DNA of 64,000 nucleotides from Candidatus Marinacidobacterium sp. (GCA_965262645.1 CBDHFO010000017.1:1252134-1316133), one strand, 5' to 3'; shown: positions 2,008 through 56,554, counted from the stretch's first letter. A program made the numbers and translations. Notes: generated from the sequence alone by a model not told the origin.

Positions 2008-2193
2008 TTAGCAGCCGGTAGTGGAACCCGGGTGAGCGCCGAGGCTGGCCAGTCTCCCGGTGGGGGCGAGGCGCCCGGCTGACAATGCGCGTGAAGGAGG
2101 AGCCCCCACCCGGAGAACCGGCCCGAGTGTATGTCGACCGAAACGCAACGCAGAACACCAGTTCTCCCGGTGGGGGGGCGCAGCGGAGTGGTG
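2008..2193 (+). repeat. F1 hairpin repeat, copy 3 (right arm truncated, fused head-to-tail to copy 4)
   Basis: TTAGCAGCCGGTAGTGGAACCCGGGTGAGCGCCGAG...GACCGAAACGCAACGCAGAAC...GGTGAACAGCC runs directly into the left terminus of the next copy. Contains three core-box variants. Confidence 0.85.
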
Positions 2194-2431
2194 AACAGCC
2201 TGTGGTGGAACCCGCGTGAGCGCCGAGGCTGGCCAGTCTCCCGGTGGGGGCGAGGCGCTTGGCTGACAAGGCGCGTGAGGGAGGAGCCCCCACCGGGAGA
2301 ACTGGCCCGGGTGTATTCCGACCGAAACGCAACGATGAGCGGCGCGCAGCGACGCGGTCAGCCGGGATGGATCGCCGGCCGAGCCCCCACCGGGAGAACT
2401 GGGCCGCGTGAGTTTCACCACAGGCTGCTAA
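2194..2431 (+). repeat. F1 hairpin repeat, copy 4, forward orientation, with core-box insertions in both arms and the apical loop
   Basis: AACAGCCTGTGGTGGAACCCGCGTGAGCGCCGAG...GAGGGAGGAGCCCCCACCGGGAGAACTGGCCCGG...GAGTTTCACCACAGGCTGCTAA. Confidence 0.9.
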
Positions 2432-2456
2432 CCGGAATGTCGAAAGTGGAGGTTCT

Positions 2457-3461
2457 TCAGAGGCGCTCGAGATCCCGAATCGTACGGAGATCCCGGAAGA
2501 TCCCTTCGAAGGTCGGGATGTCCACAGTCTGGCGTGGATCGGTATAGGCCGTATCGGGATGCGTATGCACGGCGATCGCAAGTCCGGATGCGCCGGCCGC
2601 GAGAGCAGCGCGGGCCAGCGGTCGAACCCGGTCCCGCTCGGCGACTGCGTGCGAGGGGTCCACCAATACCGGCAGATGCGAAGTGCGCCGCACCACCGGC
2701 ACCGCGTGGAGGTCGAGGAGCGTGCGCCGCTGGCCCCCAGCTCGGATTCCCCGTTCGCAAAGGATCACGTCCCGCTTCTGTCGGGCCAGGAGGGATTCCG
2801 CGGCCATCAGCCACTCTTCGACCGTTGCCGACGGACCACGTTCCAGAATGACCGGCTTCGGGAGGCTGGCGGCGATCTCCAACAGGGCTTCGTTCTCCAT
2901 ATGCCGGCCGGCGATCTGGACCAGATCTACGTGCTCGGCGACCCGCTCCGCGGAACGCGGATCCACGATTTCCGAAACGACCGGAAGTCCCGTCTCTTCC
3001 CGGACCCGATCCAGAGTGTGCAGGCCCTCGTCGCCCACACCGCCGAAGTGGTAGGGGCCGATCCGTTCCGACCACAAGCGGGCGCGGAACAGGTCGGCTC
3101 CTGCCGCTCGGACCGCGCGGGCGATGTCCACGGTGCGGGCCTCGGTTTCGATGCTACAGGGTCCCGCAATCACCACCGCGTCGGGGCCGCCGACCGTCAC
3201 GCCGGCAACCTCCACGACGGTGTCCGCCGGATGCACTTCGCGGCTGACCAGCTTGAAGGGCTTGGTGACCGGAATACAGTGCGCGACGCCCGGGAGCCGG
3301 ACCAGGAACGATGGATCCACGGGCCCACGATTCCCGGTGACGCAGATGGCGGTCCGGTCGGCACCCGGAACCCGGAGCGGCGTGAATCCCATGTCGCGAA
3401 TCGCGGTTTCCACGCGCCGGCATTGCTCTTCGGTGGGGACCGCCCCCATGATGACCAACAT
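2457..3461 (-). CDS. 3-deoxy-7-phosphoheptulonate (DAHP) synthase, type I-beta with N-terminal ferredoxin-like regulatory domain
   Basis: AGPCSIE...GAD.FR core and C-terminal DPSH..G motifs typical of KDO8PS-like DAHP synthases. A roughly 80-aa N-terminal extension resembles the Thermotoga-type enzyme. It is the last gene of the trp string. Confidence 0.8.
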   Translation of the reverse strand: MLVIMGAVPTEEQCRRVETAIRDMGFTPLRVPGADRTAICVTGNRGPVDPSFLVRLPGVAHCIPVTKPFKLVSREVHPADTVVEVAGVTVGGPDAVVIAGPCSIETEARTVDIARAVRAAGADLFRARLWSERIGPYHFGGVGDEGLHTLDRVREETGLPVVSEIVDPRSAERVAEHVDLVQIAGRHMENEALLEIAASLPKPVILERGPSATVEEWLMAAESLLARQKRDVILCERGIRAGGQRRTLLDLHAVPVVRRTSHLPVLVDPSHAVAERDRVRPLARAALAAGASGLAIAVHTHPDTAYTDPRQTVDIPTFEGIFRDLRTIRDLERL

Positions 3462-3478
3462 GGTTCTTCCTTTCGCTG

Positions 3479-4276
3479 TTAACCGCTTGCGGTGAGTTGA
3501 AGCACCGCGGAACGGTAACCGGCGATCAGGTCATCCGCGTCCCCCGCCCTTCGGTAAAGGCGTTCGACGGCCCGCGCGAGGTGGCTCCCGACGACCGCGA
3601 TCCGCGCGCCGGCTTCGAAGCCGCGAACGACCTGAGTGCGGTCCGACAGCCCAAAACCGAGACACACGGGAACCTGCACAACTCCGGCGACTTCGGCGAC
3701 CCGGCGAAGGACGCCGGAGAACCCGCCGCGACGAACGCCGGTGACGCCCTGGAAGCCCGCGAGGTAAACGAAACAGGAGTCCCCGGCGAGGCGTTTGAGA
3801 CGCGGCGCCGGGGTGAGGGGCCCCGCCAGTTCAACGTGCCCGAGTCGGGCGCGCCGGCACGCCCGGCGGAGCGGAGCGGCCTCCTCCAGCGGTATATCCG
3901 GGACGAGCAGCGAAGAGGCGCCGGCATCGCACACGGTGTCGGTGAACCGTTCGTATCCGATCCGATGCACCAGATTCCCGTACACCAGCAGGTTGAGCGG
4001 TACTCCCGGACAGGTCTTTGCGATCCGCGCCAGAAGTTCGAACCCGCGGAACGTTGAGGTGCCTCCGGCAAGCGCGCGGCTCGCCGCCGCCTGGATCGCT
4101 GGACCATCGGCGACCGGATCGCTATAGGGAAATCCGATCTCGAGCATCCGGGCACCCGCCGAGACCGCCGTCCGCGCCAGCTCCACACACAGGTCAGGAG
4201 TCGGATCTCCGAGCACCAGAAACGGGGAAACCGCCGGCCCCTCCCCCAGCGTGGTACGGAGCGCGGCGAGGCTCAT
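3479..4276 (-). CDS. trpA: tryptophan synthase alpha chain
   Basis: [20 protein letters not shown] motif. The ATG at 4276 overlaps the trpB stop (ATGA), so the longer ORF start at 4330 is rejected. Confidence 0.9.
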
Positions 4277-5469
4277 GACGATCGCCCGAGCGCGAAATAG
4301 GTCTCGAGATCCTTGTCGCCGCGGCCGCAAAGGTTCACGAGTACCCGCGCCCCGGCGGCAATCTCCCCCGATTGCCGGGCGCGGAGGACGAAAGCGAGCG
4401 CGTGGGAAGGTTCGAAAGCGGGAATGATCCCTTCGGTGGCCGACAGCACCTCGAAGGCATCCAGCGCCTCTTCATCGGTGGCGGCGACGTAGGTGGCTCG
4501 ACCGATCTCCTGAAGGTACGCGTGCTCCGGGCCCACCCCGGGATAGTCGAGCCCTGCCGAAATGCTGTGGGGTTCGCGGATCTGGCCTTCGTCGTCCTGG
4601 AGGACCATGGTGCGGGCGCCGTGGAGCAGGCCCGGAGTGCCGCGCACGAGGGTCGCACCGTGCCGGCCGCTTTCCAGTCCGGCTCCTCCGGGCTCCACGC
4701 CGACAAGCCGAACCGATTTTTCGGGCACGAAGGCGTGGAAGATCCCGATCGCGTTGCTTCCGCCCCCCACGCACGCCACGACCACATCGGGGAGCCCGCC
4801 GAGCTCACGCCGCCACTGCCGTTTGGCCTCGCGCCCGATGACTGCCTGAAAATCCCGGACCAGGCGTGGAAAGGGATGCGGTCCCGCCGCCGTCCCGAGC
4901 AGGTAGTGCGTATCGGCGAGGCTCCCGGTCCAATCGCGCAGCGCTTCGTTGATCGCGTCCTTCAGGGTGCGGGCCCCCGCGGTGACGGGAACCACTTCGG
5001 CGCCGCACAGCTCCATTCGCTTCACGTTGGGGGCCTGGCGGGCCATGTCCTTTGCCCCCATGTAGATCACCGCCCGCATATCGAACCGCGCCGCGATCAT
5101 CGCCGTCGCGACCCCATGCTGACCGGCGCCGGTCTCGGCGATCAGCCGGGTCTTGCCCATGTGCCGGGCCAGGAGGGCCTGCCCGAGCACGTTATTCGCC
5201 TTGTGCGCCCCTCCATGGAGCAGGTCCTCGCGCTTGAATACCGTTTCGAATCCGGCCCTTGCCGAGAACCGTGGGACCCTGGTAAGCGGAGTCGGCCGCC
5301 CCACCCAGTCCCGCGCCTCCCGGTCCAGTTCGCTGCGGAACGCCGCCGTAGGCAGGATCTCCTTGCGGGCGGTTTCCAGCTCCTCGAGCGCAGGCGTGAG
5401 GAGTTCCGGAGCAAACCGTCCCCCGAAGGAACCGAACGCTCCCTGCCGGGGCCGAAGTCCGCGTTTCAC
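4273..5469 (-). CDS. trpB: tryptophan synthase beta chain
   Basis: [25 protein letters not shown] and [11 protein letters not shown]-enzyme motifs. The GTG at 5469 overlaps the trpF stop (GTGA). Confidence 0.9.
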
Positions 5470-8344: not shown

Positions 8345-8594
8345 TTAGCAGGCTGTGGCGAAACTCGGGTGCGATCCATTCGCGGCGCCGAGCGCCGCGG
8401 GGGAGGGGTGTGGGGAGGGGTTTCCCCTCCCCACGAAAGACGATGGCGCGGGCCCCCACCGGGAGAACTGGCGCGGAGCGATTCGCGCCATCACCCCGTG
8501 GGGAAAGCGCCCCGCACGCGCACAAATCGTCGGAATTGCCGCACGTACCGTTCCGGAAATCGTGCGGGGTGCTTTTTCCACGGGCTGTCGGTAG
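8345..8594 (+). repeat. F2 repeat, copy 1 (reference orientation), carries one core box at 8453..8471
   Basis: TTAGCAGGCTGTGGCGAAAC...GGGGAGGGGTTTCCCCTCCCC...CCCCGTGGGGAAAGCGCCCCGCACGCG...GTGCGGGGTGCTTTTTCCACGGGCTGTCGGTA. Collinear in reverse with 54121..54338 and 55207..55425. Confidence 0.8.
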
Positions 8595-14087: not shown

Positions 14088-14292
14088 TTAACAGCCGGTG
14101 GCAAAACCCACGCGGCGTTCGGCGCGGGCTGCATCCCGGCTGAACCACTCCGCTTCGCTGCGTTCTGCGTTGCGTTTCGGTCGGAATACACCCGGGCCAG
14201 TTCTCCCGGTGGGGGCTCCTCCCTCACGCGCCTTGTCAGCCGGGCGCTTCCCGCACCTCGGCGCTCACGGGGGTTTCACCACCGGCTGTTAA
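14088..14292 (-). repeat. F1 hairpin repeat, copy 5, reverse orientation
   Basis: TTAACAGCCGGTGG...GCGTTGCGTTTCGGTCGGAATACACCCGGGCCAGTTCTCCCGGTGGGGGCTCCTCCCTCACGCGCCTTGTCAGCCGGG...CCACCGGCTGTTAA. Perfect 14-bp terminal inverted repeat. Inner arm mismatches are G-T only in the forward sense. Confidence 0.9.
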
Positions 14293-20415: not shown

Positions 20416-20438
20416 GAGCCTCCCAACCAGCCCCGAAG

Positions 20439-21524: not shown

Positions 21525-22475
21525 GTGCGCGAATACCGGTTCCTTCAGGCGGACGTTTTTACCGACCAGGCGTTCGCGGGGAATCCGCTGGCCATCGTTA
21601 CCGACGCCGAGGGGCTCTCCGGCGAAGACATGCAGCGGATCGCGGCAGAAATGAACCTGTCGGAAACCGCGTTCGTACTCCCGCCGACCGATGTGCAGGC
21701 GCTCTGCCGCCTTCGGATCTTCACTCCCAACACCGAACTTCCACTGGCGGGGCACCCCGTCGTGGGAACGGTCTTTGTGCTCGCCCGGCGCGGGGAACTG
21801 GGGCTTGGTGAGAAGCTCAGGAACCTCGGAACGGGTGTCCATCGAATCCATCAGGAATGCGGCGCCGGGGTGCTCCCAGTGGATATCCGCGTCTCGGGCG
21901 GTGCCGTGCAACAGGTCGTAATGACGCAGGCGCCTCCACGTTTCTTCGCCGAGTTCGCGGACCGAAACTCCCTCGCCGCCTGCCTCGGAATCGGCGCCGA
22001 TGAAGTCCTGCCCGACGACCGGCCGGCACAGGTCGTTTCGACGGCGCTCCCTCAGTTGCTGGTGCCGGTACGGTCGCTTCGCAGCATCGAAAAGCTGGAG
22101 CTCGATGCGATGGCGGCGCAGGCCTTGCTCAACAGGGAGGAAATCGGCTCCGACTGCATGATGGTCTTCTCCACCCAGTGCGTCGACGAGGAGAACGCTG
22201 CTCACGCCCGGATGTTCGCTCCGGGACTCGGAGTGACCGAGGACCCGGCGACCGGGAGTGCCGCGGGGGCGCTGGGCGCCTGGCTCGTCCGGCATGGATT
22301 GGTGAAGGACGGCGATCGGGATCCGGTCCGTCTGGTAATTGAACAGGGCTACGAGATCGGACGCCCCAGCTCGATCCATGTGGAGGTCGAGCGCGAGAAC
22401 GGCCAACCCTCCCTGGTGCGCGTCGGCGGCCAGGCGGTCGAGGTCGCCGAAGGGGTACTGCGGATTCCGGACTAG
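21525..22475 (+). CDS. PhzF-family isomerase/epimerase-like protein
   Basis: FLQADVFTDQAFAGNPLAIV...MQRIAAEMNLSETAFV... and C-terminal EDPATGSAAGALGAWL are typical of PhzF. The start is set at the in-frame GTG just after the rnhA stop and is uncertain. Confidence 0.7.
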   Translation: MREYRFLQADVFTDQAFAGNPLAIVTDAEGLSGEDMQRIAAEMNLSETAFVLPPTDVQALCRLRIFTPNTELPLAGHPVVGTVFVLARRGELGLGEKLRNLGTGVHRIHQECGAGVLPVDIRVSGGAVQQVVMTQAPPRFFAEFADRNSLAACLGIGADEVLPDDRPAQVVSTALPQLLVPVRSLRSIEKLELDAMAAQALLNREEIGSDCMMVFSTQCVDEENAAHARMFAPGLGVTEDPATGSAAGALGAWLVRHGLVKDGDRDPVRLVIEQGYEIGRPSSIHVEVERENGQPSLVRVGGQAVEVAEGVLRIPD

Positions 22476-22482
22476 CCCCGGG

Positions 22483-23051
22483 CTAGCCCGGATTTCTCAT
22501 ACTCGGGAGCGCTCGCCGAGTCGCAGAAGGCGCCACGCGGACGCTGAACATGGCGCATGGCGCCCATGCCACCAAGCGGAGCGACGCGCAGGCAAGGGAG
22601 CCCCCACCGGGAGAACTGGGCCGACCTCTGGCCAGTTCTCCCGGTGGGGGCCGGTACCGCCCCGCGCAGCGGGGCGAGCGGCGCAGATCTGAGTGAGCGG
22701 AAGCGCGGCCGGGCACCGGAACGCCACCTCCTGGGATGGGGACAGTGCCGAGACCTGAACCATCCCGGTGTGCGGCGATACGCGACTCCGCCCGCCTCCG
22801 GCGGGCTGTGCCGGGCCCCACCGGGAGAACTGCCCGGAGGTCGGCGTTCCCTGACTGGCGGCACCATCTGGATGGTGGCGTACCTGTGAGACCTGCTCTT
22901 TCGCAGCAACGCGCTGGAAGTCGGCGTTCCCTATCCGACACGCCGTCAGGTGGGTCGGGATCCGCGTTTCACATGGAACCGTCTTCCTCGTCAACAGGTT
23001 GCGGTTCCGCGGGGTGCGCTTCGGGCCGTGAGTATGAGAAATGCGGACTAG
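22483..23051. mobile_element. F3: 569-bp non-coding element with about 20-bp terminal inverted repeats (MITE-like), carrying three core boxes
   Basis: Left end CTAGCCCGGATTTCTCATACTC. The right end reverse-complements to CTAGTCCGCATTTCTCATACTC. Internal inverted core-box doublet at 22601..22650. Direct repeat GGA(G/A)GTCGGCGTTCCCT at 22836 and 22916. No credible ORF. It fills the whole gap between two convergent genes. Confidence 0.6.
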
Positions 23052-23062
23052 CGGCCTACGGA

Positions 23063-24863: not shown

Positions 24864-25104
24864 CTAACAGCCTGTGGTGGAACCCGGGTGAGCGCCGAGA
24901 GCGGTGAGGCCCAGTTCTCCCGGTGGGGGTCCGGCTGACAAGGCGCGTGAGGGAGGAATACCGGGTGTATTTCGACCGAAACGCAACGCAGAACGCCAGT
25001 TCTCCCGGTGGGGGGGCGAAGCGGAGTGGTTCAGCCGGGATGCATCGCCGCTCGAGCCCCCACCGGGAGAACTGGGCCGCCTGGGTTTCACCACAGGCTG
25101 TTAA
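24864..25104 (+). repeat. F1 hairpin repeat, copy 6, forward orientation, three core boxes
   Basis: CTAACAGCCTGTGGTGGAACCCGGGTGAGCGCCGAGAGCGG...GAGGGAGGAATACCGGGTGTATTTCGACCGAAACGCAACGCAGAAC...GGGTTTCACCACAGGCTGTTAA. Confidence 0.9.
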
Positions 25105-27117: not shown

Positions 27118-27193
27118 TTACAGCCTGTGGTGGAACCCGCGTGAGCGCCGAGGCTGGCCAGTTCTCCCGGTGGGGGCGAGGCGCCCGGCTGAA
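27118..27193 (+). repeat. F1 repeat, copy 7 (left arm only)
   Basis: TTACAGCCTGTGGTGGAACCCGCGTGAGCGCCGAGGCTGGCCAGTTCTCCCGGTGGGGGCGAGGCGCCCGGCTGA, then homology stops. Confidence 0.8.
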
Positions 27194-27201
27194 ATCGCCC
27201 G

Positions 27202-30018
27202 CTAGAAAGCGTGGCCGATCGTGAAATGCCACTGCCCGCGCGGGGCATCACCGATGTCGCCGAGGCGGATTCCGTAATCGAAACGCAGCGGCCCGAGCGG
27301 AGTGTTCCATCGCAAGCCAGCGCCTACGTTGTGGCCGAGGTCTCCCACCCGAAAGGAGTTCACTTCGCTGTAGACCCCGCCATGATCCGAGAAAACCGCG
27401 CCGCGCAGACTGCTCAGGATGGGGAATCGAACCTCCAGATTGCCGACGATCAGCAGGTTGCCACCGACCGGGTAACCGCTCGGGTCGAGCGGTCCCGCGC
27501 GGTCCAGTTTGTAACCACGCAAGGAGGTCGCTCCACCGGCGAAGAATCGCTCGGTGATCGGTACGAGAGCCGGCTCGTCCGCGCCCAGAGTCCACGCAAG
27601 ACCGAGTCGGCCCGCAACCGCAACGACTACCTGTCCCCCGACCGGGAAAAACAGATATTGCTGTGCGAGGCCCTTCAGGAAGGGCGCTCGGGAGCGGAGA
27701 AGTGCGGACGACCACTCCACATCCAGGATGCCGAAACGGCCCCGACGAGGATCCACCGGGTCATCGCGGGTGTCCGTGACCACGGAAGCCGACACCGCCG
27801 AGAGCCAGAGATTGTCCGCAAAGTTGCGGTCAATCTGATTCGGATTGATCTTCAGATCGAACAGCTCGCTCGTGGTCAGGTCATAGCGGAGAAAAAAACT
27901 TCGCCCGAGGACTCTCCGGGTAACCTGCACGCCGATTCCAGAGCGGATGAAATCCAGGCTCTCCCGGTCCTGCGACTCACGGAACGCGCTCACGAAGATA
28001 GGGACCTCGCCCTCCACGCTCTCCGCCCCCCGGTAGGTCGCCACCATCCGCGTGCCCTTGAGCGAAAACCGGCCGAACAGACTCAAGGTATGGCCCATCC
28101 CGAAGAGATTGTTCCGGGTCCATTCGCCATCTCCCCGGACCTGCTCGCGTTCGCTGTACCCCGCGCCGTAGCCGATGCTGGTGCGCGGGCCCTCCACAAC
28201 CCGGATCAGCACGTTGCGCTCGCTGATCGGTTCCTCGGGCTCGAGGAGATTCACGTCGACGCTGCGAAAGATCCCCATGGAAACGAGGCGCCGGCGCACC
28301 TCGAGGAGATCGCCGCTCCCCAGCGGATCGCCCTCCTCAAAAGGAAGCCGGGACCGGATCACTGAATCCCTCGTGGTATCGAGGCCCGCGACGATGATCC
28401 CTCCGACCGTGAAGTAGTTGCCGGGTCGGATCCGGAAGACGACCTCCGCATCGTGGCTGATCGGATCGACCGGAGCCTCGACCTCCACCACGGCTTCCAG
28501 ATATCCCCGGTTTCGATGAAACGTCTCGAGATCTTCGCGGGCGCCCACGATTTCTTCGGCTACGTAGGGTGTACCCGGCGCAATGGCGGCCACCTCCGAC
28601 AGGTCGGTATCGGTGAATGCGGAACCCCCTTCGAAACGCACCGCCCGCACCGAGGCCGCCGGACCCGGATCAACCCGCACATTGAGATCAAGCGAGAGGC
28701 CTTCGTCGGCCGGGACGGGCGGGCCCGGCTCCAGCGGCACCACCTCAACCCGGAAATAACCCCGCCGCCGCAGCGTTCGGCGCAGGCTGTCGGTCAGGGC
28801 CCTCCACTCTTCTTCGCGGTAGGGACGGCCGGGCCGCAGCGGCAGAAGGGCTTCGGCGACGCTATCCGCCTCCTCCGGAGGGGCGCCTTCCGATGAGACC
28901 GCGCCGACAACGTAACGCGGGCCCGGGTCGGCGGAGAACCGGAAGGTCTGCCGGAGCCCATCCGGACTCTCGACGCTCTCCACCACCACGGTACCGTCCC
29001 GATGTCCTTCCCGACGAAGCTCGGCAAGGAGTTGCTGCCTGGTCGCTTCGATCGCATCCAAAGTGAGCGTGCGCTCCGAAAGGGAATCCACGACGCGCTC
29101 GGCAGCCCCCCCGGAAGCACCGAACCCTTCCACTTCCAGGGTAACCTCGGGGCCGGGCTCCACCGACAGAACCACCCGAACATCTCCCGTGTCGATGGGC
29201 CTCCAATCGAGACTGGCAGTGGCGAAGAGGAAGCCTCGATCCCGAAGTCTTTCCTCGACTTCGGGAAGGCGCGCAGCAACTTCGGCTTCGAGCCAGGGAT
29301 CCTCTGGAGAAACCCGGAGCGCGGGGATGACGTTCCGGCCGAGCTCGTCTTCCACCCCGACGGCCTCGATGAAGGCGACCCGGGCGCGCGCTCCCGAGGT
29401 CACCCGCACCTCCAGGCGCGCATCGCGGCCGTCCGGCACGCTCCGGATGTCCACTTCCGCGGTCAGGTAACCCCGCGAGCGCAACCACCCTTCGGCTGTC
29501 GCTCCTCGAACGGGCAGGTCGTCCGGAACGGATTCGCCGACCTCGAGACCGAGCGTGGCGATCAGCCCCAAATCCTCTCCGGGAGGGGCACCGTCAACGC
29601 TAAACCGGGCGATACTTGGAATGGGGTCGAGTTCAAAGACGAGCCGAAGTCCCCCACCCGACGCCGCCTCGGAACGAATCCGGACGTCGCGGAAGCGTCC
29701 GAGAGCAAACACCTGCTTCACAGATTGCCGGGCGACCAGTGGCCGGAAGCGAGTTCCGGGACGAACCGAGATCAGCCGGGACACCTCTTCGGGTACCGGG
29801 TCGTTGCTCCCATCCGCCCAGCGCACCACCACCGACTCCACGCGCTGTGACAACGGATCTTCCGCCTGACCGGCGCCGGTCTGGCCAGCGGCAAGGCGCC
29901 CGCTCGGGATCGCCGACAAGCCAGCGGCGAGGAGGATCGCTCCCGGACGGCCTAGGCTGCGCCAGGAATCCTTAACGGCCTGTGGACAAAGTCGCACGGC
30001 ATTCAAGCGGCGATGCAT
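27202..30018 (-). CDS. bamA: outer membrane protein assembly factor BamA
   Basis: POTRA-like repeats, then a beta-barrel ending ...GLRWNTPLGPLRFDYGIRLG...WHFTIGHAF (C-terminal aromatic). The N-terminal 96 codons of the ORF run through F1 copy 8. The first usable in-frame start (ATG at 30018) lies inside the repeat, so the start is uncertain. Confidence 0.8.
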   Translation of the reverse strand: MHRRLNAVRLCPQAVKDSWRSLGRPGAILLAAGLSAIPSGRLAAGQTGAGQAEDPLSQRVESVVVRWADGSNDPVPEEVSRLISVRPGTRFRPLVARQSVKQVFALGRFRDVRIRSEAASGGGLRLVFELDPIPSIARFSVDGAPPGEDLGLIATLGLEVGESVPDDLPVRGATAEGWLRSRGYLTAEVDIRSVPDGRDARLEVRVTSGARARVAFIEAVGVEDELGRNVIPALRVSPEDPWLEAEVAARLPEVEERLRDRGFLFATASLDWRPIDTGDVRVVLSVEPGPEVTLEVEGFGASGGAAERVVDSLSERTLTLDAIEATRQQLLAELRREGHRDGTVVVESVESPDGLRQTFRFSADPGPRYVVGAVSSEGAPPEEADSVAEALLPLRPGRPYREEEWRALTDSLRRTLRRRGYFRVEVVPLEPGPPVPADEGLSLDLNVRVDPGPAASVRAVRFEGGSAFTDTDLSEVAAIAPGTPYVAEEIVGAREDLETFHRNRGYLEAVVEVEAPVDPISHDAEVVFRIRPGNYFTVGGIIVAGLDTTRDSVIRSRLPFEEGDPLGSGDLLEVRRRLVSMGIFRSVDVNLLEPEEPISERNVLIRVVEGPRTSIGYGAGYSEREQVRGDGEWTRNNLFGMGHTLSLFGRFSLKGTRMVATYRGAESVEGEVPIFVSAFRESQDRESLDFIRSGIGVQVTRRVLGRSFFLRYDLTTSELFDLKINPNQIDRNFADNLWLSAVSASVVTDTRDDPVDPRRGRFGILDVEWSSALLRSRAPFLKGLAQQYLFFPVGGQVVVAVAGRLGLAWTLGADEPALVPITERFFAGGATSLRGYKLDRAGPLDPSGYPVGGNLLIVGNLEVRFPILSSLRGAVFSDHGGVYSEVNSFRVGDLGHNVGAGLRWNTPLGPLRFDYGIRLGDIGDAPRGQWHFTIGHAF

Positions 30019-30209
30019 CCCGGCTGAAGCGCCCCCCCACCGGGAGAACTGGCGCTTCGCGTCGTTCGTCGTTGCGCTTCGGTCGAAATACACCCGGGCC
30101 AGTTCTCCCGGTGGGGGCTCCTCCCTCACGCGCCTTGTCAGCCGGACCCCCACCGGGACTGGGCCTCCCCGCTCTCGGCGCTCCCCCGGGTTCCACCACA
30201 GGCCGTTAA
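29972..30209 (-). repeat. F1 hairpin repeat, copy 8, reverse orientation (arms from two different subfamilies)
   Basis: TTAACGGCCTGTGGACAAAGTCGCACGG...GGTCGAAATACACCCGGGCCAGTTCTCCCGGTGGGGGCTCCTCCCTCACGCGCCTTGTCAGCCGG...GGGTTCCACCACAGGCCGTTAA. Confidence 0.9.
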
Positions 30210-38794: not shown

Positions 38795-39013
38795 TCGCGC
38801 CCGGCACCCGCCGGGCCGGAATCCGGCCCGGAAGTCTGAACCCGATCCCCGATGCGATTCTACCGTCTGCCGGGAACGCCGGGCCAGTTCTTCCGGTGGG
38901 GGTCTTCAGACCGGCATCGCCAGCCGCAGGCTGGCAAAACTCCCAGCGCGATCGGGACACCTGATCCTTGGCAATCGCGGGCATTTCAAGGCCTCATTCA
39001 CCCCGTCGATCCC

Positions 39014-40888: not shown

Positions 40889-40984
40889 CACACGCGCCTT
40901 GTCAGCCGGGCCCCCACCGGGAGAACTGGCCCCACCGGGAGAACTGGCCGGGCTCGGCGCTCACCCGGGTTCCACCACAGGCTG

Positions 40985-43560: not shown

Positions 43561-43590
43561 CCCGACCCGATCCGACCCGACCCGACCCGA
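43561..43590. repeat. pentanucleotide tandem repeat (CCCGA)x6
   Basis: CCCGACCCGATCCGACCCGACCCGACCCGA lies just after the stop of the membrane-protein gene and upstream of the sigma-like gene. Confidence 0.8.
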
Positions 43591-43671
43591 CGCCTAAGTC
43601 TTAGACAGGAACACGCAAAAGGGTTTCTTACAGCGAGCCGAAGGGAATAGAATACCCCGCTCGCGCCGTCG

Positions 43672-46022: not shown

Positions 46023-47024
46023 ATGTCAACCAGTCAATGGTACGTAGCGGAAGGAGGCCGGACGCTTGGTCCGTTCTCCAGCGCCGATGTCCTGCAGGCT
46101 CTCCAGAGCGGACGCTGGACCGCGGCGACCATGGTTTGCCCTCTCGGGGAAACCTCCTGGAAACCCGCCTCCAGCATCCCCGAACTGCGGGTCGGCATCG
46201 GCGCCGGCTCAGCCCCGCCCCGTCCTCGGGCGCCGCGGCGGATGCACGAAGTGGACTACCGGATCGTCGGCGAGGAAATGCAGTTCGTGGAAGTCGAGCT
46301 CGATCCCAGCGAAGGGGCGATCGCCGAAGCGGGCGCCATGATGTTCATGAGCTCCGGAATCGAGATGCAGACCATCTTCGGCACCGGTGGAGAGAGCGGC
46401 TTCATGGACAAGGTGCTCGGCGCCGGAAAGCGGCTGCTGACCGGCGAGAGCCTCTTCATGACCGAGTTCGTGAACCGCGGCGCCGGAAAGCAGCACGTGG
46501 CCTTCGCTTCACCCTACCCAGGCAAGATCCTGCCGGTGCGACTCGACGAACTCGGGGGCCGGCTTATCGCGCAGAAGGATGCCTTCCTGTGCGGCGCCAA
46601 AGGGGTGTCGATCGGGATCGCCTTTCAGCGGAAGATCGGTACGGCGCTCTTCGGAGGCGAGGGTTTCATCATGCAGTCGCTCGAGGGCGACGGCCTGGCC
46701 TTCCTGCACGCCGGCGGCACGATCATCAAGAAGGAACTGGCGGCCGGCGAGAACCTGCGGGTAGACACCGGGTGTCTGGTCGCGCTCGCCCCTTCGGTGA
46801 ACTACGACATTCAGTCCGTGGGCGGGATCAAGTCCGCCCTCTTCGGCGGAGAGGGATTCTTCTTCGCCAGCCTCACGGGACCGGGGTGGGTCTGGCTGCA
46901 GTCCCTGCCCTTCAGCCGATTGGCCGGCCGGATCCATCAGGCCGCGCCGCAGACAGGCCGCGGTGGCAAGGGAGAGGGTTCGCTCCTCGGCCGGCTCTCC
47001 GGGGTCGGTTGGGACGGCTCTTAG
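46023..47024 (+). CDS. GYF_2 (DUF4339) domain fused to AIM24/TIGR00266-family protein
   Basis: WYVAEGGRTLGPFSSADVLQALQSGRWTAATMVCPLGETSWKPASSIPEL is GYF_2-like. Then Y.I.G...Q.VEV.L.P.E...AE.GAMM.M...I.M.T and GEGFIMQSLEGDG.AFLHAGG are AIM24-like. AGGAGA precedes the ATG. The TAG stop is the TTAG terminus of F1 copy 10. Confidence 0.65.
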   Translation: MSTSQWYVAEGGRTLGPFSSADVLQALQSGRWTAATMVCPLGETSWKPASSIPELRVGIGAGSAPPRPRAPRRMHEVDYRIVGEEMQFVEVELDPSEGAIAEAGAMMFMSSGIEMQTIFGTGGESGFMDKVLGAGKRLLTGESLFMTEFVNRGAGKQHVAFASPYPGKILPVRLDELGGRLIAQKDAFLCGAKGVSIGIAFQRKIGTALFGGEGFIMQSLEGDGLAFLHAGGTIIKKELAAGENLRVDTGCLVALAPSVNYDIQSVGGIKSALFGGEGFFFASLTGPGWVWLQSLPFSRLAGRIHQAAPQTGRGGKGEGSLLGRLSGVGWDGS

Positions 47025-47207
47025 CAGCCTATGGAAAAAGTCACGCGGCATTCGAACGGCGATGCATCCCGGCTGAACCGGGCCGCTTCGCGACCCTCAT
47101 CGTTGCGTTTCGGTCGGAATACACTCGGTATTCCTCCCTCACGCGCCTTGTCAGCCGGGCGCCTCGCCGTTCTCGGTGCTCACGTCACTTTCTCCACAGG
47201 CTGCTAG
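47021..47207 (-). repeat. F1 hairpin repeat, copy 10, reverse orientation, arm-variant subfamily without core boxes
   Basis: TTAGCAGCCTATGGAAAAAGTCACGCGG...GCGTTTCGGTCGGAATACACTCGGTATTCCTCCCTCACGCGCCTTGTCAGCCGGG...CACGTCACTTTCTCCACAGGCTGCTAG. A solo terminus-like fragment follows (CAGCCTGCGGACAA, 47208..47221). Confidence 0.9.
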
Positions 47208-50987: not shown

Positions 50988-51152
50988 CAGACGATCTCCT
51001 CGGAGAGACAAATCGGAAAACCCAAGAGCATACGGCCTCCGGCGGGGAGTTGCCCCGTACCGGGAGTCCGTCGCGAACGGCGGCCGAGGCCGGCCATCCT
51101 CACCCGACGGTCAGCGCCTGACGCGGCCGGGCTGGCGGCGCTCCACACGCTG

Positions 51153-51276
51153 CCAGCAGCCTGTGGACACAGTCGCGCGGCCCGGTTCTCCCGGTGGGGG
51201 CTCCTCCCTCGCGCGCCTTGTCGGCCGGGCGACTCGCCGGGCTCGGCGCTCACCCGGGTCCACCACCGGCTGCTAG
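51153..51276 (-). repeat. F1 repeat, copy 11, reverse orientation, internally deleted
   Basis: CCAGCAGCCTGTGGACACAGTCGCGCGG|CCCGGTTCTCCCGGTGGGGGCTCCTCCCTCGCGCGCCTTGTCGGCCGGG...CACCCGGGTCCACCACCGGCTGCTAG. Confidence 0.8.
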
Positions 51277-51289: not shown

Positions 51290-51559
51290 ATGGCCAACCG
51301 CTCCCGACAGACCTTCCTCAAGCGCCGGAAGGAAAAGGAGCGCGTAGCGCGTCAGCGGGCCAAGGCTGTGCAGCGCCGGGAGCGGTCCATCGAGAAAGAG
51401 CGCGAAATTCCGGTGCGCACGGATGGAGATCCGGATATTCAGGGTTTGGTTGCGGGTCCGCAGGAACCCGTCTGGAAGATGGCCGACGTCCTGACGGACG
51501 ATGAACGGGTCGCGCTCGAAGAAGAAGAAGAAGAAGAAGAGGAACAGGCCGCATCCTGA
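51290..51559 (+). CDS. small highly charged protein (89 aa; basic N-half, poly-Glu C-terminus)
   Basis: MANRSRQTFLKRRKEKERVARQRAKAVQRRERSIEKERE...LEEEEEEEEEQAAS. The poly-E is encoded by (GAA)7-GAG-GAA at 51518..51544. No recognised family. Flanked by F1 copies 11 and 12. Confidence 0.45.
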   Translation: MANRSRQTFLKRRKEKERVARQRAKAVQRRERSIEKEREIPVRTDGDPDIQGLVAGPQEPVWKMADVLTDDERVALEEEEEEEEEQAAS

Positions 51560-51576
51560 GCGATTGGGCGCAGCTC

Positions 51577-51612
51577 CCAATCAGCTGGCCAATCAGCTGG
51601 CCAATCAGCCGG
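51577..51612. repeat. 12-nt tandem repeat x3 (CCAATCAGCTGG)
   Basis: CCAATCAGCTGG CCAATCAGCTGG CCAATCAGCCGG lies 18 nt after the stop of the small charged ORF. Each unit holds a CAGCTG palindrome. Confidence 0.8.
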
Positions 51613-51654
51613 TCTCCCGGAGAACACCCCGGGGGACAAGAAAGCGCTTCGGTG

Positions 51655-51832
51655 AACAGCCGGTGGTGGAACCCGGGTGAGCGCCGAGGCCGGCCAGTTC
51701 TCCCGGTGGGGGCAAGGCCCAGTTCTCCCGGTGGGGCCAGTTCTCCCGGTGGGGGCCCGGCTGACAAGGCGCGTGAGGGAGGAGCCCCCACCGGGAGAAC
51801 TGGGCCGCGTGGGTTTCACCACCGGCTGTTAA
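51655..51832 (+). repeat. F1 repeat, copy 12, forward orientation, apical domain deleted, three tandem core boxes at 51694..51755
   Basis: AACAGCCGGTGGTGGAACCCGGGTGAGCGCCGAGG, then the box three times, then GGCTGACAAGGCGCGTGAGGGAGGAGCCCCCACCGGGAGAACTGGGCCGCGTGGGTTTCACCACCGGCTGTTAA. Confidence 0.85.
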
Positions 51833-52553: not shown

Positions 52554-52663
52554 GAGAATGGCTCCTTTCCGCGCCTTGGGGCGCGAGACAACGCACTAAA
52601 ACGCAACCGGCGTGCCAAGCTGGCGCGGTGATAAAGTTGGCCGGTTCCGACGAAATATCGGTT

Positions 52664-52737: not shown

Positions 52738-52776
52738 CCGACGGTAACCTCCGAGTTGGAGATCCCATTGCTGGAG

Positions 52777-53200: not shown

Positions 53201-53229
53201 GCCAAGGCCGTCGCTGACTCGTTGCTGAG

Positions 53230-53685: not shown

Positions 53686-53955
53686 CTCTGCGGGGACGTC
53701 CCCGAGCGCGGAAATCGGGATCCGGTCCTCGATCAGCATGATCGGAATCCCGTTCCGGACGGGGTAGAGAAACTTCCCGTCCTCCCGAACCAAGCCGCCG
53801 TCCACGGCCTCGGGCTTCGCAGTGCCGGCCGGCACCTCAAGACTTCCGTCGCGGATGGCGCGGTTCACGGATTCCACCAGCGCCGCAGGCGCCACCCTTA
53901 CCGGTTGGCGCGTCTCCGGGCAGCAGAGGATTTCCAGGAGTTCGGGATGGATCAT
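53617..53955 (-). CDS. Trm112/YcaR (UPF0434)-like protein with long C-terminal tail
   Basis: MIHPELLEILCCPETRQPV...LVREDGKFLYPVRNGIPIMLIEDRIPI is typical of the Trm112p-like family. An acidic tail follows. Confidence 0.6.
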   Translation of the reverse strand: MIHPELLEILCCPETRQPVRVAPAALVESVNRAIRDGSLEVPAGTAKPEAVDGGLVREDGKFLYPVRNGIPIMLIEDRIPISALGDVPAESDQDVEEGGDSGHHPVETGSGS

Positions 53956-53989
53956 CGGGTCACGGAGCCCAGCGCGGCGAGCAGGGGGC

Positions 53990-54077
53990 TGGTGCCGGAG
54001 GAGGGACTCGAACCCTCATGGCCCCAGGGACCGCGGGATTTTGAGTCCCGTGCGTCTACCAATTCCGCCACTCCGGC
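53990..54077 (-). tRNA. tRNA-Leu (anticodon CAA), CCA encoded
   Basis: Reverse complement reads GCCGGAG-TG-GCGG-AATTGGTAG-ACGC-A-CGGGA-CTCAAAA-TCCCG-(long variable arm CGGTCCCTGGGGCCATG)-AGGGT... TTCGAGT ...CTCCGGC-A-CCA. Class II tRNA cloverleaf. Confidence 0.92.
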
Positions 54078-54120
54078 TATCCCCCGAAGTCACCGCCGGA
54101 CCGGCGCTCGGAAGGACAGT

Positions 54121-54338
54121 CTACCCACGGCCCGTGGGGAAAGCACCCCGGATCGCGTCCATGACCGGAAACGCGCCAAGTCTCAGATCTTTGGTTGCGG
54201 GTGCTTTCCCCCACACAATGGCGGCGCAAATCGTTCCGCGATGCACCCCACCGTCTTGGGGAAATCCCTCCCCACACGTCGCCTGCGGCGCTGCACGCCG
54301 CAATTTGACGCTGCGCGACTTGCGCCACCGGCTGTTGA
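54121..54338 (-). repeat. F2 repeat, copy 2, reverse orientation
   Basis: CTACCCACGGCCCGTGGGGAAAGCACCCCGGATCGCG...GCGGGTGCTTTCCCCCACA...GGGGAAATCCCTCCCCACAC...TTGCGCCACCGGCTGTTGA. Collinear with the reverse complement of 8345..8594. Confidence 0.75.
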
Positions 54339-54484
54339 CGATCCCTCCTCCCAAGCGTCCTCGACCCTGAAGGAGACGTCACGAGGGCCGTCATTCGTAC
54401 CTCTCACCCGGCGGCGGGCAACGGCGAGGTTCCGAAAGCCAACCCCGGCAAGTGGACAAAGTCACCAAATCCCAAGAGTGCCAG

Positions 54485-54514
54485 TAGTCAGGGTCTTTCC
54501 GAGTGTGGTATCAT
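54485..54514 (+). promoter_or_regulatory. candidate extended -10 sigma-70 promoter for carD
   Basis: TAGTCA, an 18-nt spacer, then TGGTATCAT (TGn plus TATCAT), about 48 nt upstream of the carD start in an unusually AT-rich patch. Sequence match only. Confidence 0.35.
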
Positions 54515-54561
54515 CACTGGTTCGCGTACTAAAAATGCTATCCGGGAGGCGTCGTTGAGTA

Positions 54562-55209
54562 TTGATGCGGTTTGAAGTGGGAGACAAGGTGATCTACCCG
54601 AATCAGGGGATCAGCGTCGTCGAGAGCATTGAACTCACCAACGGGGCGGCGGGGCCGAGCTTCTATCGTCTGCGCCTGCTGGCGAAGTCCACACTGGTCA
54701 TGGTGCCGGTGGAAAAGGTTGATGAAGTCGGGCTGCGCCGGATCATGACCGAAGGTGATGTCGAGGAGGTTCTCGACGTCCTCGAAAACGGCGCGGTGGA
54801 TGAACAGGTCAACTGGAAGACCCGTTACAAGGACAACTCCGACCGCATGAAGGGCGGTTCTCCGGTGGAGGTCGCTGGCGTCCTCAAAGGTCTCTTCTAC
54901 CTGAGCGAGCGCAAGACCCTTTCCTTCCGCGAGAAGCGGATGCTCGACCGGGCGCACCAGCTCACCGTGACCGAGGTCGCCGAAGTCGCCAACGAGACCC
55001 TCGAGGCGGTGGAACGCAAGGTCGTGGAGGCGCTGCGCCGGAGCCGGAACGGAATGGTTGGCCACGAGGCCCGAGAGGGAGAGCGCGAAGGAAGCGCCGC
55101 CGGCGCCGCCACCAGCGTAGTGCCCCTGCGACCGCCCAAGCGGCGGCGGGTGGCCAAGGGCTTGGACAGCGGGCGGCGTCCCGTCTCCATCTCGATAAAC
55201 CGCTACTAG
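54562..55209 (+). CDS. carD: CarD/CdnL-family transcriptional regulator
   Basis: F.VGDKVIYPNQGISVVESIE.......FYRLRLL...T.MVPV is the CarD_TRCF RNAP-interacting domain, followed by a helical C-terminal domain. The TAG stop is the terminus of F2 copy 3. Confidence 0.8.
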   Translation: MMRFEVGDKVIYPNQGISVVESIELTNGAAGPSFYRLRLLAKSTLVMVPVEKVDEVGLRRIMTEGDVEEVLDVLENGAVDEQVNWKTRYKDNSDRMKGGSPVEVAGVLKGLFYLSERKTLSFREKRMLDRAHQLTVTEVAEVANETLEAVERKVVEALRRSRNGMVGHEAREGEREGSAAGAATSVVPLRPPKRRRVAKGLDSGRRPVSISINRY

Positions 55210-55425
55210 CGCCCGGGGGGAAGCACCCCGCTCGCGATCACGACGGGAAACACCCCACGTCTGCGGAATCGGTCGGATGCGGGGCGTTTCCCTCTCTGGA
55301 TGGCGGAGCGCATCGCTTCGCGATCCGCTCCACCGTCTTTCGTTTCGAGGGGATACCCCTCCCGAGCGGCGCTCGGCGCCGCGGGCTCGGCCTGGCGCCA
55401 GGCGACTTCCTCCGCACGCTGCTAG
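55207..55425 (-). repeat. F2 repeat, copy 3, reverse orientation
   Basis: TAGCGCCCGGGGGGAAGCACCCCGCTCGCGATC...GCGGGGCGTTTCCCTCTCTGGATGGCGGAGCGCATCGCTTCGCGATCC...GAGGGGATACCCCTCCC...CCGCACGCTGCTAG. Confidence 0.7.
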
Positions 55426-55484
55426 ACGAGCCCATCCGCGCCGGAACAGAATTCGGCGCGTGACTGCCTGAGCGGCCCATACTC

Positions 55485-56264
55485 ATGGTTCGAGAGTCTG
55501 TCCGGCGCAGGCCACTACGGACCGTACGCGCCATCCTCGGCACCATTGGGATCGCCGCGGTTTTGCCGATTCTGCTGTTTCTCGGGGCGTTCCTGATGCC
55601 GCTAGGGGATGTCTTCAGCGGCCGGCATCGTCTTGGCTACGAGATCGGACGCCAGATCATTGCCGTTCTCTGGTTCGTTGGCGGAATCCGGATGCACGAA
55701 GTGGACCGGTGGCGTGTCGAACCGTTCCGTACTCGGGTGTACATGCCGAACCACCAGTCGCTGACGGACATGCCGCAGGTGCTCTACCTCCTGCCCAAAG
55801 CCAACGGAACGCTCATCAAGAAAGAGTCATTCCGGGTGCCGCTGCTCGGCTGGGGCCTCCGCGCCGCGGGATTCACGCCCGTGGATCGGTCGGGTGTGAA
55901 GGCAGCCCGAAAGAGCCTCGAAGCGGCGGTCACCGCTCTCAAGGGTGGTCGATCGTTCGTGATCGCGCCCGAAGGAACCCGTAGTCGCACCGGGGAACTT
56001 GGCCCGTTCAAAACGGGCGGATTCCGTCTCGCAATCCAGGCGGAGGTCCCGATCGTGCCCATCACGGTTACCGGGGCCAGGGACATCCTTCCCCCGCGCG
56101 GCAAGCTCATCTATCCGGGAACCATCCAGGTCCGGTATCACGACCCCATAGAGACCGAGGGAATCGACGGCCGGGACCGCCGGCAGATCGGGGCTCTGAT
56201 GGACCGGGTCCGGAACGCCATCCAGAGCGGGCTCGACGAAGGGGAGCCAACCGCCAGCGGATGA
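55485..56264 (+). CDS. plsC: 1-acyl-sn-glycerol-3-phosphate acyltransferase
   Basis: PNHQSLTD (HX4D) and FVIAPEGTRSRTG acyltransferase motifs. N-terminal TM. Confidence 0.8.
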   Translation: MVRESVRRRPLRTVRAILGTIGIAAVLPILLFLGAFLMPLGDVFSGRHRLGYEIGRQIIAVLWFVGGIRMHEVDRWRVEPFRTRVYMPNHQSLTDMPQVLYLLPKANGTLIKKESFRVPLLGWGLRAAGFTPVDRSGVKAARKSLEAAVTALKGGRSFVIAPEGTRSRTGELGPFKTGGFRLAIQAEVPIVPITVTGARDILPPRGKLIYPGTIQVRYHDPIETEGIDGRDRRQIGALMDRVRNAIQSGLDEGEPTASG

Positions 56265-56331
56265 TCGGTCAGAGCCAAAACGGCGGCCGAATGGAGCACC
56301 ACCCGGCGCACGCCGGCGTTCGAATTCGGCA

Positions 56332-56554
56332 CCAGCAGCCGGTGGCGAAACCCGCGCGGCCCAGTTCTCCCGGTGGGGGCTCGGCCGGCGATCCATCCCG
56401 GCTGAACCGCGTCGCTGCGCGCCGCTCATCGTTGCGTTTCAGTCGAAATACACCCGGGCCAGTTCTCCCGGTGGGGGCTCCTCCCTCACGCGCCTCGTCA
56501 GCCGGGCGCCTCGCCGGCCTCGGCGCTCACGTGGGTTCCGCCACCGGCTGTTAA
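56332..56554 (-). repeat. F1 hairpin repeat, copy 13, reverse orientation
   Basis: CCAGCAGCCGGTGGCGAAACCCGCGCGGCCCAGTTCTCCCGGTGGGGGC...GCGTTTCAGTCGAAATACACCCGGGCCAGTTCTCCCGGTGGGGGCTCCTCCCTCACGCGCCTCGTCAGCCGGG...GGGTTCCGCCACCGGCTGTTAA. Confidence 0.9.

Follow-up and report, generated by a model that had tools for sequence, protein, structure and literature searches.

The stretch analyzed here is a 64-kb segment (G+C content, 66%) of a genome assigned to 'Candidatus Marinacidobacterium' (GCA_965262645.1, CBDHFO010000017.1:1252134-1316133). The lineage is one of sponge-associated Vicinamibacteria (Acidobacteriota). We refer to the whole segment as the window and count positions from its first letter. 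The genes of the window are housekeeping genes (trp operon, DAHP synthase, BamA/TamB, acetyl-CoA carboxylase, HslUV, sigma-70, ABC-F, and PEPCK). Repeats named F1, F2, H, and E550 also lie there, and a short sequence, here called the box, recurs within them. We found that the box is a discrete module with sharp, constant ends, that orthologous loci of related strains differ by single boxes, as an earlier suggestion of an independently varying module had anticipated, and that one box, inside an F2 element, was gained recently. The overall picture drawn from these data is of a discrete, noncoding, non-autonomous cassette that would be inserted by a trans-acting activity on stem-loop DNA and then reshuffled; we give this picture about an even chance of being correct.

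The core of the box is 18 nt long (CCCCACCGGGAGAACTGG), its 19-mer form is CCCCCACCGGGAGAACTGG, and the inserted unit amounts to ~20 nt (GCCCCCACCGGGAGAACTGG). The left half is denoted GCCCCCACC... and the right half ...GAGAACTGG. When the 19-mer was counted at ≤2 mismatches, 25 matches were obtained in the window, 19 of them exact, and 100 dinucleotide-preserving shuffles gave an expectation of 0.00. A wider count at ≤3 edits, indels included, yielded 30 copies with a mean identity of 97%, compared with 92.6% for the F1 backbone. The number of about 30 copies given in a first-pass annotation of the same DNA was thus confirmed, and every copy to which it had assigned a position was recovered (8453-8471, 38884-38902, 40911-40947, 51694-51712 with 51719-51755, and 22601/22632/22815). 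Judged by the starts of called genes, all 30 boxes are intergenic; three that seemed to overlap open reading frames (ORFs) proved to be upstream of where the genes truly begin. The placement of boxes relative to genes follows no consistent pattern. A DNA uptake sequence (DUS/USS) would be expected genome-wide, coding regions included, and with none of the 30 window copies in a gene, the box is not such a sequence.

Flank and context statistics were obtained from 300 boxes, taken from the window and 98 listed loci of a species-level scan described below. The flank consensus is GC-box-SCC, so that the conserved unit reaches beyond the core box recognized at first, which itself stands. The flanks fall into 46 left and 44 right classes that occur in 82 combinations, and the box was found in at least 20 contexts in both orientations, spread over F1, F2, H hairpins, and E550. 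Of all box 11-mers, 98% belong to full-length boxes. The box, asymmetric and invariant, has no terminal inverted repeat (TIR), and its targets lose 0-2 nt without any duplication. A single box contains no palindrome and folds with only -1.1 kcal/mol (z, 0.46 versus shuffles). Tandem boxes have a period of 18 nt and form runs of two to three units at most. The inverted doublet at 22601-22650, noticed earlier, is real, and with its 12-nt spacer it would form a 20-bp hairpin (-30.3 kcal/mol; z, -7.9). It is the only inverted doublet in the window; the remaining inverted pairs are 55-190 nt apart, with a spacing set by the F1 slots described below.

For comparison with the window, we used loci and contigs of related strains or species, which are designated by L-numbers (e.g., L128). 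The strain contigs, found by exact-protein look-up, come from long-read metagenomes and are 96-99.5% identical to the window. Over the ~50 kb of housekeeping DNA compared, nearly all structural differences between the window and the strain contigs lie in repeats, and nucleotide diversity is fourfold higher in repeat columns (0.062) than elsewhere (0.015).

The main carrier of the box is F1, a noncoding element of 183 nt with TIRs of 20-25 nt, (T)AACAGCCTGTGGTGGAACCC ... GGGTTTCGCCACAGGCTGTTA, which folds as one long hairpin (-116 kcal/mol). Its lengths are quantised in 18-nt steps (183, 201, 219, 237, and 255 nt). Box-free copies, the existence of which had been reported earlier, are as follows.

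934-1116, plus strand: box-free reference F1 of 183 nt, with termini (T)AACAGCCTGTGGTGGAACCC and GGGTTTCGCCACAGGCTGTTA
110-260: partial box-free F1
47021-47206, minus strand: box-free F1, an insertion polymorphism absent in 6 of 10 other strains (L109, L113-L116, and L118), where the empty site is ctcCTAGCAGCC
56553-56684: partial box-free F1

Empty F1 sites in other strains read ggcaCTAGaatc at 56335, ctcCTAGCAGCC at 47021, agCTAAgg at 20428, and gcgTTAAccc at 24866, and at the filled sites the target is duplicated as CTAG (56335 and 47021), CTAA (20428), or TTAA (24866). F1 is therefore a transposable element of the miniature inverted-repeat type (MITE) that duplicates a 4-bp YTAR target, and because the empty sites are intact and presence or absence varies between strains, it is still moving in the population. 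F1 can therefore move without a box, as the box-free insertion polymorphism at 47021 shows. At this site, two distinct versions of F1 are found in different strains, and new F1 copies often land beside existing termini, giving tandem arrays.

A parent insertion sequence (IS) for F1 was not found in the fetched DNA: TIR pairs 0.6-3.5 kb apart enclose ordinary genes (RbfA, TruB, and BamA) and no transposase. An IS4-family element in L128 was considered as the parent of F1 or of the box and was rejected, its ends being unrelated to both. The termini of F1 and F2 are alike (TAACAGCCTGTGG versus TTAGCAGGCTGTGG), so the earlier statement that the three host families are otherwise unrelated was too strong. 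Sub-segments of F1 have been amplified in tandem to as many as three copies in a strain-variable manner, either as a 71-nt unit (terminus, S5 box, and ggccgggatggatcgccggcc) or as a box-free unit of ~131 nt; such loci are L109 (~ window 56335), L124/L125 (~ window 27192), L002, L005, L076, L083, and L095. In one subfamily of F1 termini (...ACTTTGTCCACAGGCTG / CAGCCTGTGGATAAAG), perfect DnaA-box-like 9-mers, TTGTCCACA and TGTGGATAA, are present (e.g., the L027 4051 region, L103, and window 30003-30020). These 9-mers may be due to chance, and hundreds of copies could titrate DnaA. Orthologous F1 copies in two species (L027 3876-4100 and L065 537-760) are ~98% identical, compared with 84% for the adjoining genes, a difference that suggests homogenisation or recent replacement of the repeat.

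To map the boxes within F1, 63 full copies were aligned to the box-free consensus. The boxes occupy about seven discrete slots, each with a near-fixed orientation; the first-pass annotation was thus right in placing boxes at several positions of F1, and what was not borne out is free placement. The slots are listed by position and box orientation.

S1, ~position 38: minus, rarely plus
S2, position 45: minus, one or two boxes in tandem
S3, position 76: plus
S4a and S4c, positions 112-128: minus
S4b, position 140: plus
S5, position 156: plus

Filling of S1 adds 19 nt. The 63 copies show 22 occupancy patterns, and each pair of slots occurs in all four combinations. In the F1 hairpin S1/S2 face S5, and S2 and S5 show a weak tendency to be filled together (odds ratio, 7.5; p, 0.015); no co-occurrence was seen for S3 and S4, though these would be expected to pair. 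The nearest backbone neighbor is in the same occupancy state in 23 of the 63 copies (10 expected), and copies that share a filled slot have slightly more similar backbones. Part of the slot states are inherited through transposition of box-bearing copies, and most are reshuffled. The F1 elements of the window that carry boxes, and the individual boxes of the first tandem pair, are given below.

2048-2066, minus strand: degenerate box CCAGTCTCCCGGTGGGG with a 1-nt deletion, filling S1 in the first of two tandem F1 copies; its twin lies at ~2232-2250
2103-2121, plus strand: box with 2 mismatches, slot S3 of the F1 at 2010-2193
2158-2176, minus strand: box, slot S4a of the F1 at 2010-2193
2287-2305, plus strand: box, slot S3 of the F1 at 2194-2430
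2384-2402, plus strand: box, slot S5 of the F1 at 2194-2430
14090-14291, minus strand: F1 with one box (14197-14215) in S3; four structural alleles among strains
24866-25103, plus strand: F1 of 237 nt with boxes in S2 (24911), S4a (24996), and S5 (25057); empty site gcgTTAAccc in five other strains
27119-27195, plus strand: truncated left end of F1 with an S1 box (27158-27176); full, internally amplified form in L124 and L125
30003-30208, minus strand: F1 with boxes at 30034 (plus) and 30099 (minus) and a decayed box at ~30147-30162 (3-nt deletion); intact tandem pair in L128
40890-40987, minus strand: 5'-truncated F1 with tandem boxes at 40911-40947 (period, 18); at least 6 alleles in 11 strains, and in L114 the box is at S1 instead of S2
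51150-51276, minus strand: internally deleted F1, in which the box at 51182-51200 (1 mismatch) joins the left flank of S3 to the right flank of S5
51656-51831, plus strand: F1 with boxes in S1 (51694-51712) and twice in S2 (51719 and 51737; pair 51719-51755), and a box at 51785 between the left flank of S3 and the right flank of S5, the product of a deletion between direct boxes
56334-56684, minus strand: F1 with boxes at 56361 and 56459, together with a partial F1 that lacks the box; 0 to 3 units among strains, empty site ggcaCTAGaatc in L114

Presence or absence of single boxes at orthologous loci, which the first-pass annotation had proposed to look for, was observed at 14090, at 24866, and at the F2 site at 8453. 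The four alleles of the F1 at 14090-14291 have a box in S3 only, boxes in S3 and S5, a miniature TIR-box-TIR form, or boxes in S1 (plus), S3, and S5 together with a second F1. The allele with S3 and S5 is 18 nt longer and carries a linked A to G change beside the box. An allele without F1 was also seen in metatranscriptome runs X25-X27, from another sponge population, in which 14085 is joined to 14293 with only GCTGAC between them. Of the strains, L128 alone shares the F1 at 24866-25103 with the window, at the same length of 237 nt; the copy in the window has S2 filled and S3 empty, and that of L128 has S3 filled and S2 empty. The two copies are otherwise identical, except for the nucleotides at the sides of these slots and one mismatch in the S5 box of L128.

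Deletions that end exactly in one box were encountered three times in the ~50 kb among roughly 10 strains: from S3 to S5 at 51786 (undeleted form in L110 and L113), from S1 (plus) to S5 in L100 and L104, and between the boxes at 22601 and 22815, where a 214-nt segment is missing in L127 and L128. Tandem boxes have been gained, lost, or partly deleted between strains. The same elements contain many microhomology deletions, and the F1 alleles have mosaic single nucleotide polymorphisms (SNPs). Site-specific inversion between inverted boxes was rejected, as no inversion junction was found and the mixed flank combinations are all explained by deletions.

Outside F1, the box lies in three further settings. 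Repeats of the H family consist of GGA[AG]CGCC followed by a hairpin with compensatory changes in its stem and then by a second covarying hairpin. At least six stem variants were found in all, among them GCCGACC/GGTCGGC, GCCGGCC/GGCCGGC, GCCGGTCT/AGACCGGC, and GCCGGTGT/ACACCGGC. A perfect stem of ≥6 bp follows 46 of 90 matches to the H motif, and 1 in shuffles. H often occurs in tandem units of ~80 nt (window 22850 and 22930, both minus, and 38873, plus; loci such as L052, L008, and L019) and looks like the REP-type (repetitive extragenic palindromic) family of this lineage. The box interrupts H at no fewer than seven points in both orientations (after GCCGG, after the loop, after hairpin 1, and inside hairpin 2 or its loop), adding 19-20 nt, and box-free paralogs are intact. 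A search of the whole window against Rfam at gathering thresholds returned two tRNAs only, and no known family was assigned to F1, F2, or H. The features outside F1 are as follows.

38873-38925, plus strand: H-type hairpin, GGAACGCCGG followed by a box (minus) and TCTTCAGACCGGCA; 20-nt insertion with the box at 38884-38902 (1 mismatch), in a 116-nt element absent in L109
22476-23062: E550, a noncoding insertion of ~590 nt that has TIRs cggatttctcatactc/gagtatgagaaatgcgg and duplicates the target ACTAG; boxes at 22601 (plus), 22632 (minus), and 22815 (plus)
22601-22650: perfect inverted box doublet, whose 12-nt spacer GCCGACCTCTGG is half of an H-type hairpin
8453-8471, plus strand: box in a MITE-like F2 element (~8345-8585); shared by the window, L136, and L140 but not by L135 or L137-L139
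54125-54340, minus strand: box-free F2 paralog with AT at the box site

Among strains, E550 occurs in a long form (box, 214 nt, box) and in a short form with a single box. Downstream of a PhzF-like gene lies an insertion hot spot, the site ACTAGccccgggCTAG, which has no insert in L124 and L125 and where the window (22465-23062) has the 590-nt element. At the same site, L128 (8577-10416) has an extra IS4-family transposase element with target-site duplication CTAG and ends GCCCAATACTGTTCACTTAG, and L131 (8365-8743) has an unrelated insert.

The clearest case of a gained box is in F2. The spacer that contains this element has two lengths, 693 nt (window, L136, and L140) and 675 nt (L135 and L137-L139). 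The short form reads ...GGCGCGG-AT-CGCGGAGCG... and the long form ...GGCGCGG-GC-CCCCACCGGGAGAACTGG-CGCGGAGCG..., and this exchange of AT for the box is the sole structural difference in ~730 nt of otherwise nearly identical sequence. All four F2 paralogs, the one at 54125-54340 in the window and three elsewhere, have AT and lack the box. As AT is found both in the paralogs and in the box-free strains, it is the ancestral state, and the box at 8453 is a recent, polarised gain at a non-homologous site within one population. Simple gene conversion is unlikely, since no F2 copy is known to carry a box there. Replacement of A or AY by GC plus the 18-mer also separates empty from filled sites at S3, S4b, and S5 of F1 and at H sites. 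From this recurring replacement of A(Y), the written unit is taken to be ~20 nt, which lengthens the target by 18-20 nt net.

A species-level scan with the 18-mer, using one genome per species, listed at least 98 stretches. Among these, the exact 18-mer is dense in several species of Vicinamibacteria or 'Ca. Marinacidobacterium', often with 2-15 boxes per 8 kb, and essentially absent elsewhere, and it is kept across species whose genes are ~84-88% identical. Nearly all of the stretches listed are from metagenome-assembled genomes labelled Vicinamibacteria, 'Candidatus Marinacidobacterium', or Acidobacteria, sponge-derived bins included. The few matches in Actinobacteria among those listed are single and lie in coding sequence, which corresponds to chance level. 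The window sequence is present in sponge metagenome and metatranscriptome runs, and fragments of F1 and the box are abundant in sponge metatranscriptome contigs. The short F1/box RNA contigs have a word depth 10-50 times that of their flanks, as expected of a multi-copy transcribed repeat. The 18-mer was found in only one of 2.9 M viral contigs (IMG/VR), and a phage attachment site was therefore rejected as an explanation of the box. Two other candidates were also discarded. A coding role had been considered, since 18 nt equal 6 codons and F1 equals 61 codons; S1 adds 19 nt and H sites 19-20 nt, both orientations occur between genes, and the termini contain stop codons. A tRNA primer-binding site was dismissed on inspection, as TGG, which would complement the CCA end of a tRNA, begins neither strand of the box, and no T-arm-like sequence is present.

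Read as a cassette, the box resides in intergenic repeats that form hairpins, within a clade of Vicinamibacteria associated with sponges. Primary insertion would occur in trans at A(Y) of GC-rich stem-loop, probably single-stranded, DNA, where a unit of ~20 nt, GCCCCCACCGGGAGAACTGG, would be written in, usually in place of A or AY. The inserting activity could be a transposase or recombinase, or else a template-directed polymerase. Once in place, boxes change rapidly in number and position, as the strain comparisons show, through F1 transposition, tandem duplication by 18 nt, deletions from one direct box to another, and the swapping of slot states between F1 copies. An activity in trans is favored because the ends are constant, the contexts are many, and the A(Y) replacement signature is repeated. 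Nested as it is in intergenic repeats that are themselves mobile, the box may be called a parasite of parasites. The cassette is among the smallest insertion units seen in bacteria; it has no demonstrated host function, and its main effect would be to make spacers hypervariable and prone to recombination. We think it unlikely that a bolder form of this proposal is correct, in which the 20-mer would be the smallest known mobile unit, written into A(Y) of GC-rich hairpins by a dedicated trans-acting machine (of the HUH/recombinase type, or a polymerase like telomerase or reverse transcriptase, the latter accounting for a first unit of 20 nt followed by a tandem period of 18 nt), and thus a hyperparasite of MITEs and REP-like repeats, with a chemistry, 1-2 nt replaced and none duplicated, unlike any transposition pathway described.

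Several observations weigh against insertion by a trans-acting activity. No candidate for the inserting enzyme was found among 28 proteins searched against Pfam, 23 of which are window ORFs, or among the called genes of the strain loci; the window genes are all housekeeping, as are those of the strain loci except for the IS4-family insertion in L128. A crude scan of 1.29 Mb of related DNA, in six-frame translation, for the HUH...Y..NP motif of REP-associated tyrosine transposases (RAYTs) returned one implausible hit and nothing credible. Neither a full-length parent element nor a split box was seen: there are five or six partial boxes, none of them paired, and split boxes as the trace of a larger element were accordingly rejected. 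The replacement of A(Y) by GC plus the box matches no known transposase chemistry, for nothing is duplicated and the ends are not joined seamlessly. Given the GC-rich microhomology that the junctions display (GCGCGG.., ..CGCGG), a templated event that needs no enzyme is also conceivable. In F1, slot states are linked to adjacent SNPs (cgaac versus cgagc plus box), which points to exchange of existing haplotypes rather than fresh insertion for most F1 polymorphisms, and only one clean gain in a non-F1 context has been caught.

An alternative explanation needs no dedicated machinery. Errors of host replication and recombination in GC-rich repeats prone to form hairpins (template switching via microhomology, template switching within the hairpin by which a box is mirrored to the opposite arm, ectopic gene conversion among the hundreds of F1 copies, and slippage), together with hitch-hiking on F1, would account for the box. 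We regard this as possible but doubtful. It gains from the absence of an enzyme candidate in the window genes and in the 1.29 Mb covered by the crude scan, from the position of the slots in complementary arms of the F1 hairpin with the S2/S5 co-occurrence (odds ratio, 7.5; p, 0.015), from the tie between slot states and neighboring SNPs, and from the high diversity of the repeats (0.062 versus 0.015) with their mosaic SNPs and frequent microhomology deletions. The ~98% identity of the orthologous F1 of L027 and L065 between flanks of 84% fits as well. However, template switching predicts variable extents, whereas 98% of the 11-mers lie in complete units with constant ends, and S3 and S4, which would pair in the hairpin, do not co-occur. 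Conversion can produce neither the 20 or more non-homologous contexts nor the gain in F2, for which no box-bearing F2 donor is known.

It is also conceivable, though in our judgment improbable, that the box is a selected functional site, such as a target of a recombinase, nucleoid protein, regulator, or small RNA, and that its mobility is secondary. The exact 18-mer is kept across species with ~84-88% gene identity, box identity (97%) exceeds that of the F1 backbone (92.6%), recombination resolves exactly at boxes in the three deletions described above, F1/box fragments are abundant in metatranscriptome contigs, and the dRS3 repeats of neisserial mosaic arrays provide a precedent (PMC1797815). 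Nevertheless, isolated copies decay neutrally (38884 and its strain variants, ~30147-30162, 2048, and 2103), diversity in orthologous box columns (0.064) is no lower than in the surrounding repeat (0.062), presence per locus varies freely between close strains, and placement relative to genes is inconsistent. If the window is typical, a genome has ~1,900 sites, which would moreover be dangerous substrates for a long-range site-specific recombinase. That the box is simply a fixed part of the F1, F2, or F3 subfamily consensus and is inherited with whole elements hardly deserves credence. The discrete slots with near-fixed orientation, the slightly closer backbones of copies that share a filled slot, and the neighbors in the same state (23 of 63 versus 10) agree with inheritance of this kind. 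Against it stand the 22 occupancy patterns with all four combinations per slot pair and the insertions at many points of the H hairpins, and it is refuted by single-box differences between orthologous, otherwise identical elements at 14090, 24866, and the F2 locus. The first-pass annotation had itself named fixed positions within subfamilies and a lack of box-level polymorphism as findings that would speak against an independent module, and neither was observed.

Among known systems, the closest analogue of the box is dRS3 of the intergenic mosaic elements found in neisseriae (NIMEs), in which 20-bp dRS3 repeats, presumed recombinase sites, flank RS elements of >100 families (PMC1797815). Both systems have units of ~20 bp in hundreds of copies, intergenic mosaics with many repeat families, syntenic arrays that differ in repeat number between strains, and suspected recombination sites; the box likewise joins F1, F2, H, and E550 in strain-variable arrays. 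dRS3 has 6-bp terminal inverted repeats around a variable core (ATTCCC-N8-GGGAAT) and is an integration target of filamentous phage via an IS110-like recombinase (PMC1797815). In contrast, the box is asymmetric and invariant throughout, shows no phage link (1 viral contig of 2.9 M) and no split copies, lies inside MITEs and hairpins rather than between units, and belongs to an unrelated lineage.

REPs are imperfect palindromes of 20-40 nt that form stem-loops, REPINs are inverted doublets that replicate as a unit, with most copies paired at a fixed spacing, and the genome has a RAYT gene bordered by such repeats. REPs and REPINs are mobilised by RAYTs (PMC2817692, PMC3116915), and the foot of their stem bears a conserved tetranucleotide, GTAG or CGTC (PMC3733652). 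Like REPs, REPINs, and bacterial interspersed mosaic elements (BIMEs), the box is short, GC-rich, very abundant, and strictly intergenic and forms mosaics with other motifs, and one inverted doublet gives a REPIN-like hairpin. The resemblance to REPINs suggested in the first-pass annotation did not hold beyond this: the single box lacks both a palindrome and a GTAG/CGTC tag, boxes seldom form doublets, and neither the window nor the 1.29 Mb of the crude scan yielded a RAYT-like ORF. The box interrupts hairpins and does not form them, and the REP-like component is the H family. The box is therefore not a REP or REPIN.

A variable internal module is also known from the pneumococcal BOX element, a modular boxA-boxBn-boxC repeat (PMC3049150), and from the BrickBuilt MITE of P. 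gingivalis, which contains a 23-nt minisatellite (PMC4596501). With these, F1 and the box share a short module of variable copy number within an intergenic element bounded by inverted repeats, quantised lengths, and transcription with neighbors. In BOX and BrickBuilt, however, the module varies as one tandem block in one place of one family, whereas the box occupies about seven slots in both orientations and several families, in tandems of two to three at most, and has been gained at a new site. Insertion sequences that prefer the stem-loops of existing extragenic repeats provide a further parallel; several target REPs or hairpin loops. One of them, the IS110-family ISPpu9, inserts in REPs (PMC12288879). 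Such elements are kilobase-sized and have their own transposase, while the box is noncoding and 18-20 nt long. F1 has the TIRs, small size, lack of coding sequence, target duplication, and empty sites of a MITE, and the box has neither TIRs nor target duplication. In the literature searched, no description of these repeats or of 'Marinacidobacterium' was found.

The box is an unusually clear nested mini-module in bacterial mosaic repeats. The BIME, NIME, and BOX mosaics have long been known; here a clean, polarised gain, AT to the 20-mer, was caught in a natural population by long-read metagenomes, which makes the insertion step directly testable. An enzyme behind the box, if there is one, would write a defined 20-mer into structured DNA, and if a dedicated mechanism exists, the box would be categorically new. 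The box marks the spots of greatest difference between close symbiont strains, which makes it a useful strain marker, and it is likely to drive the evolution of spacers and untranslated regions in sponge symbionts.

Other strain-variable repeats and two peculiarities of the assemblies were also recorded. Further tandem repeats that vary between strains are the 12-nt unit ccaatcagc[ct]gg in 1-5 copies, a GAA run at a gene 3' end, and 5-10-nt units (cgacc/gcgacgtgac); these repeats lie at window ~51585-51625, ~51540-51565, and 43585-43625. L047 (JAKZVH010000183.1) is a 6-kb contig binned as Gammaproteobacteria that has H hairpins with the box as in the Vicinamibacteria symbionts, and it is probably mis-binned. 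In CAXXLQ010000004.1, a 6-kb segment occurs twice in one contig (L056 and L097, at 3.89 Mb and 0.11 Mb) with 98.8% identity, repeats and boxes included, and represents either a segmental duplication or an assembly overlap.

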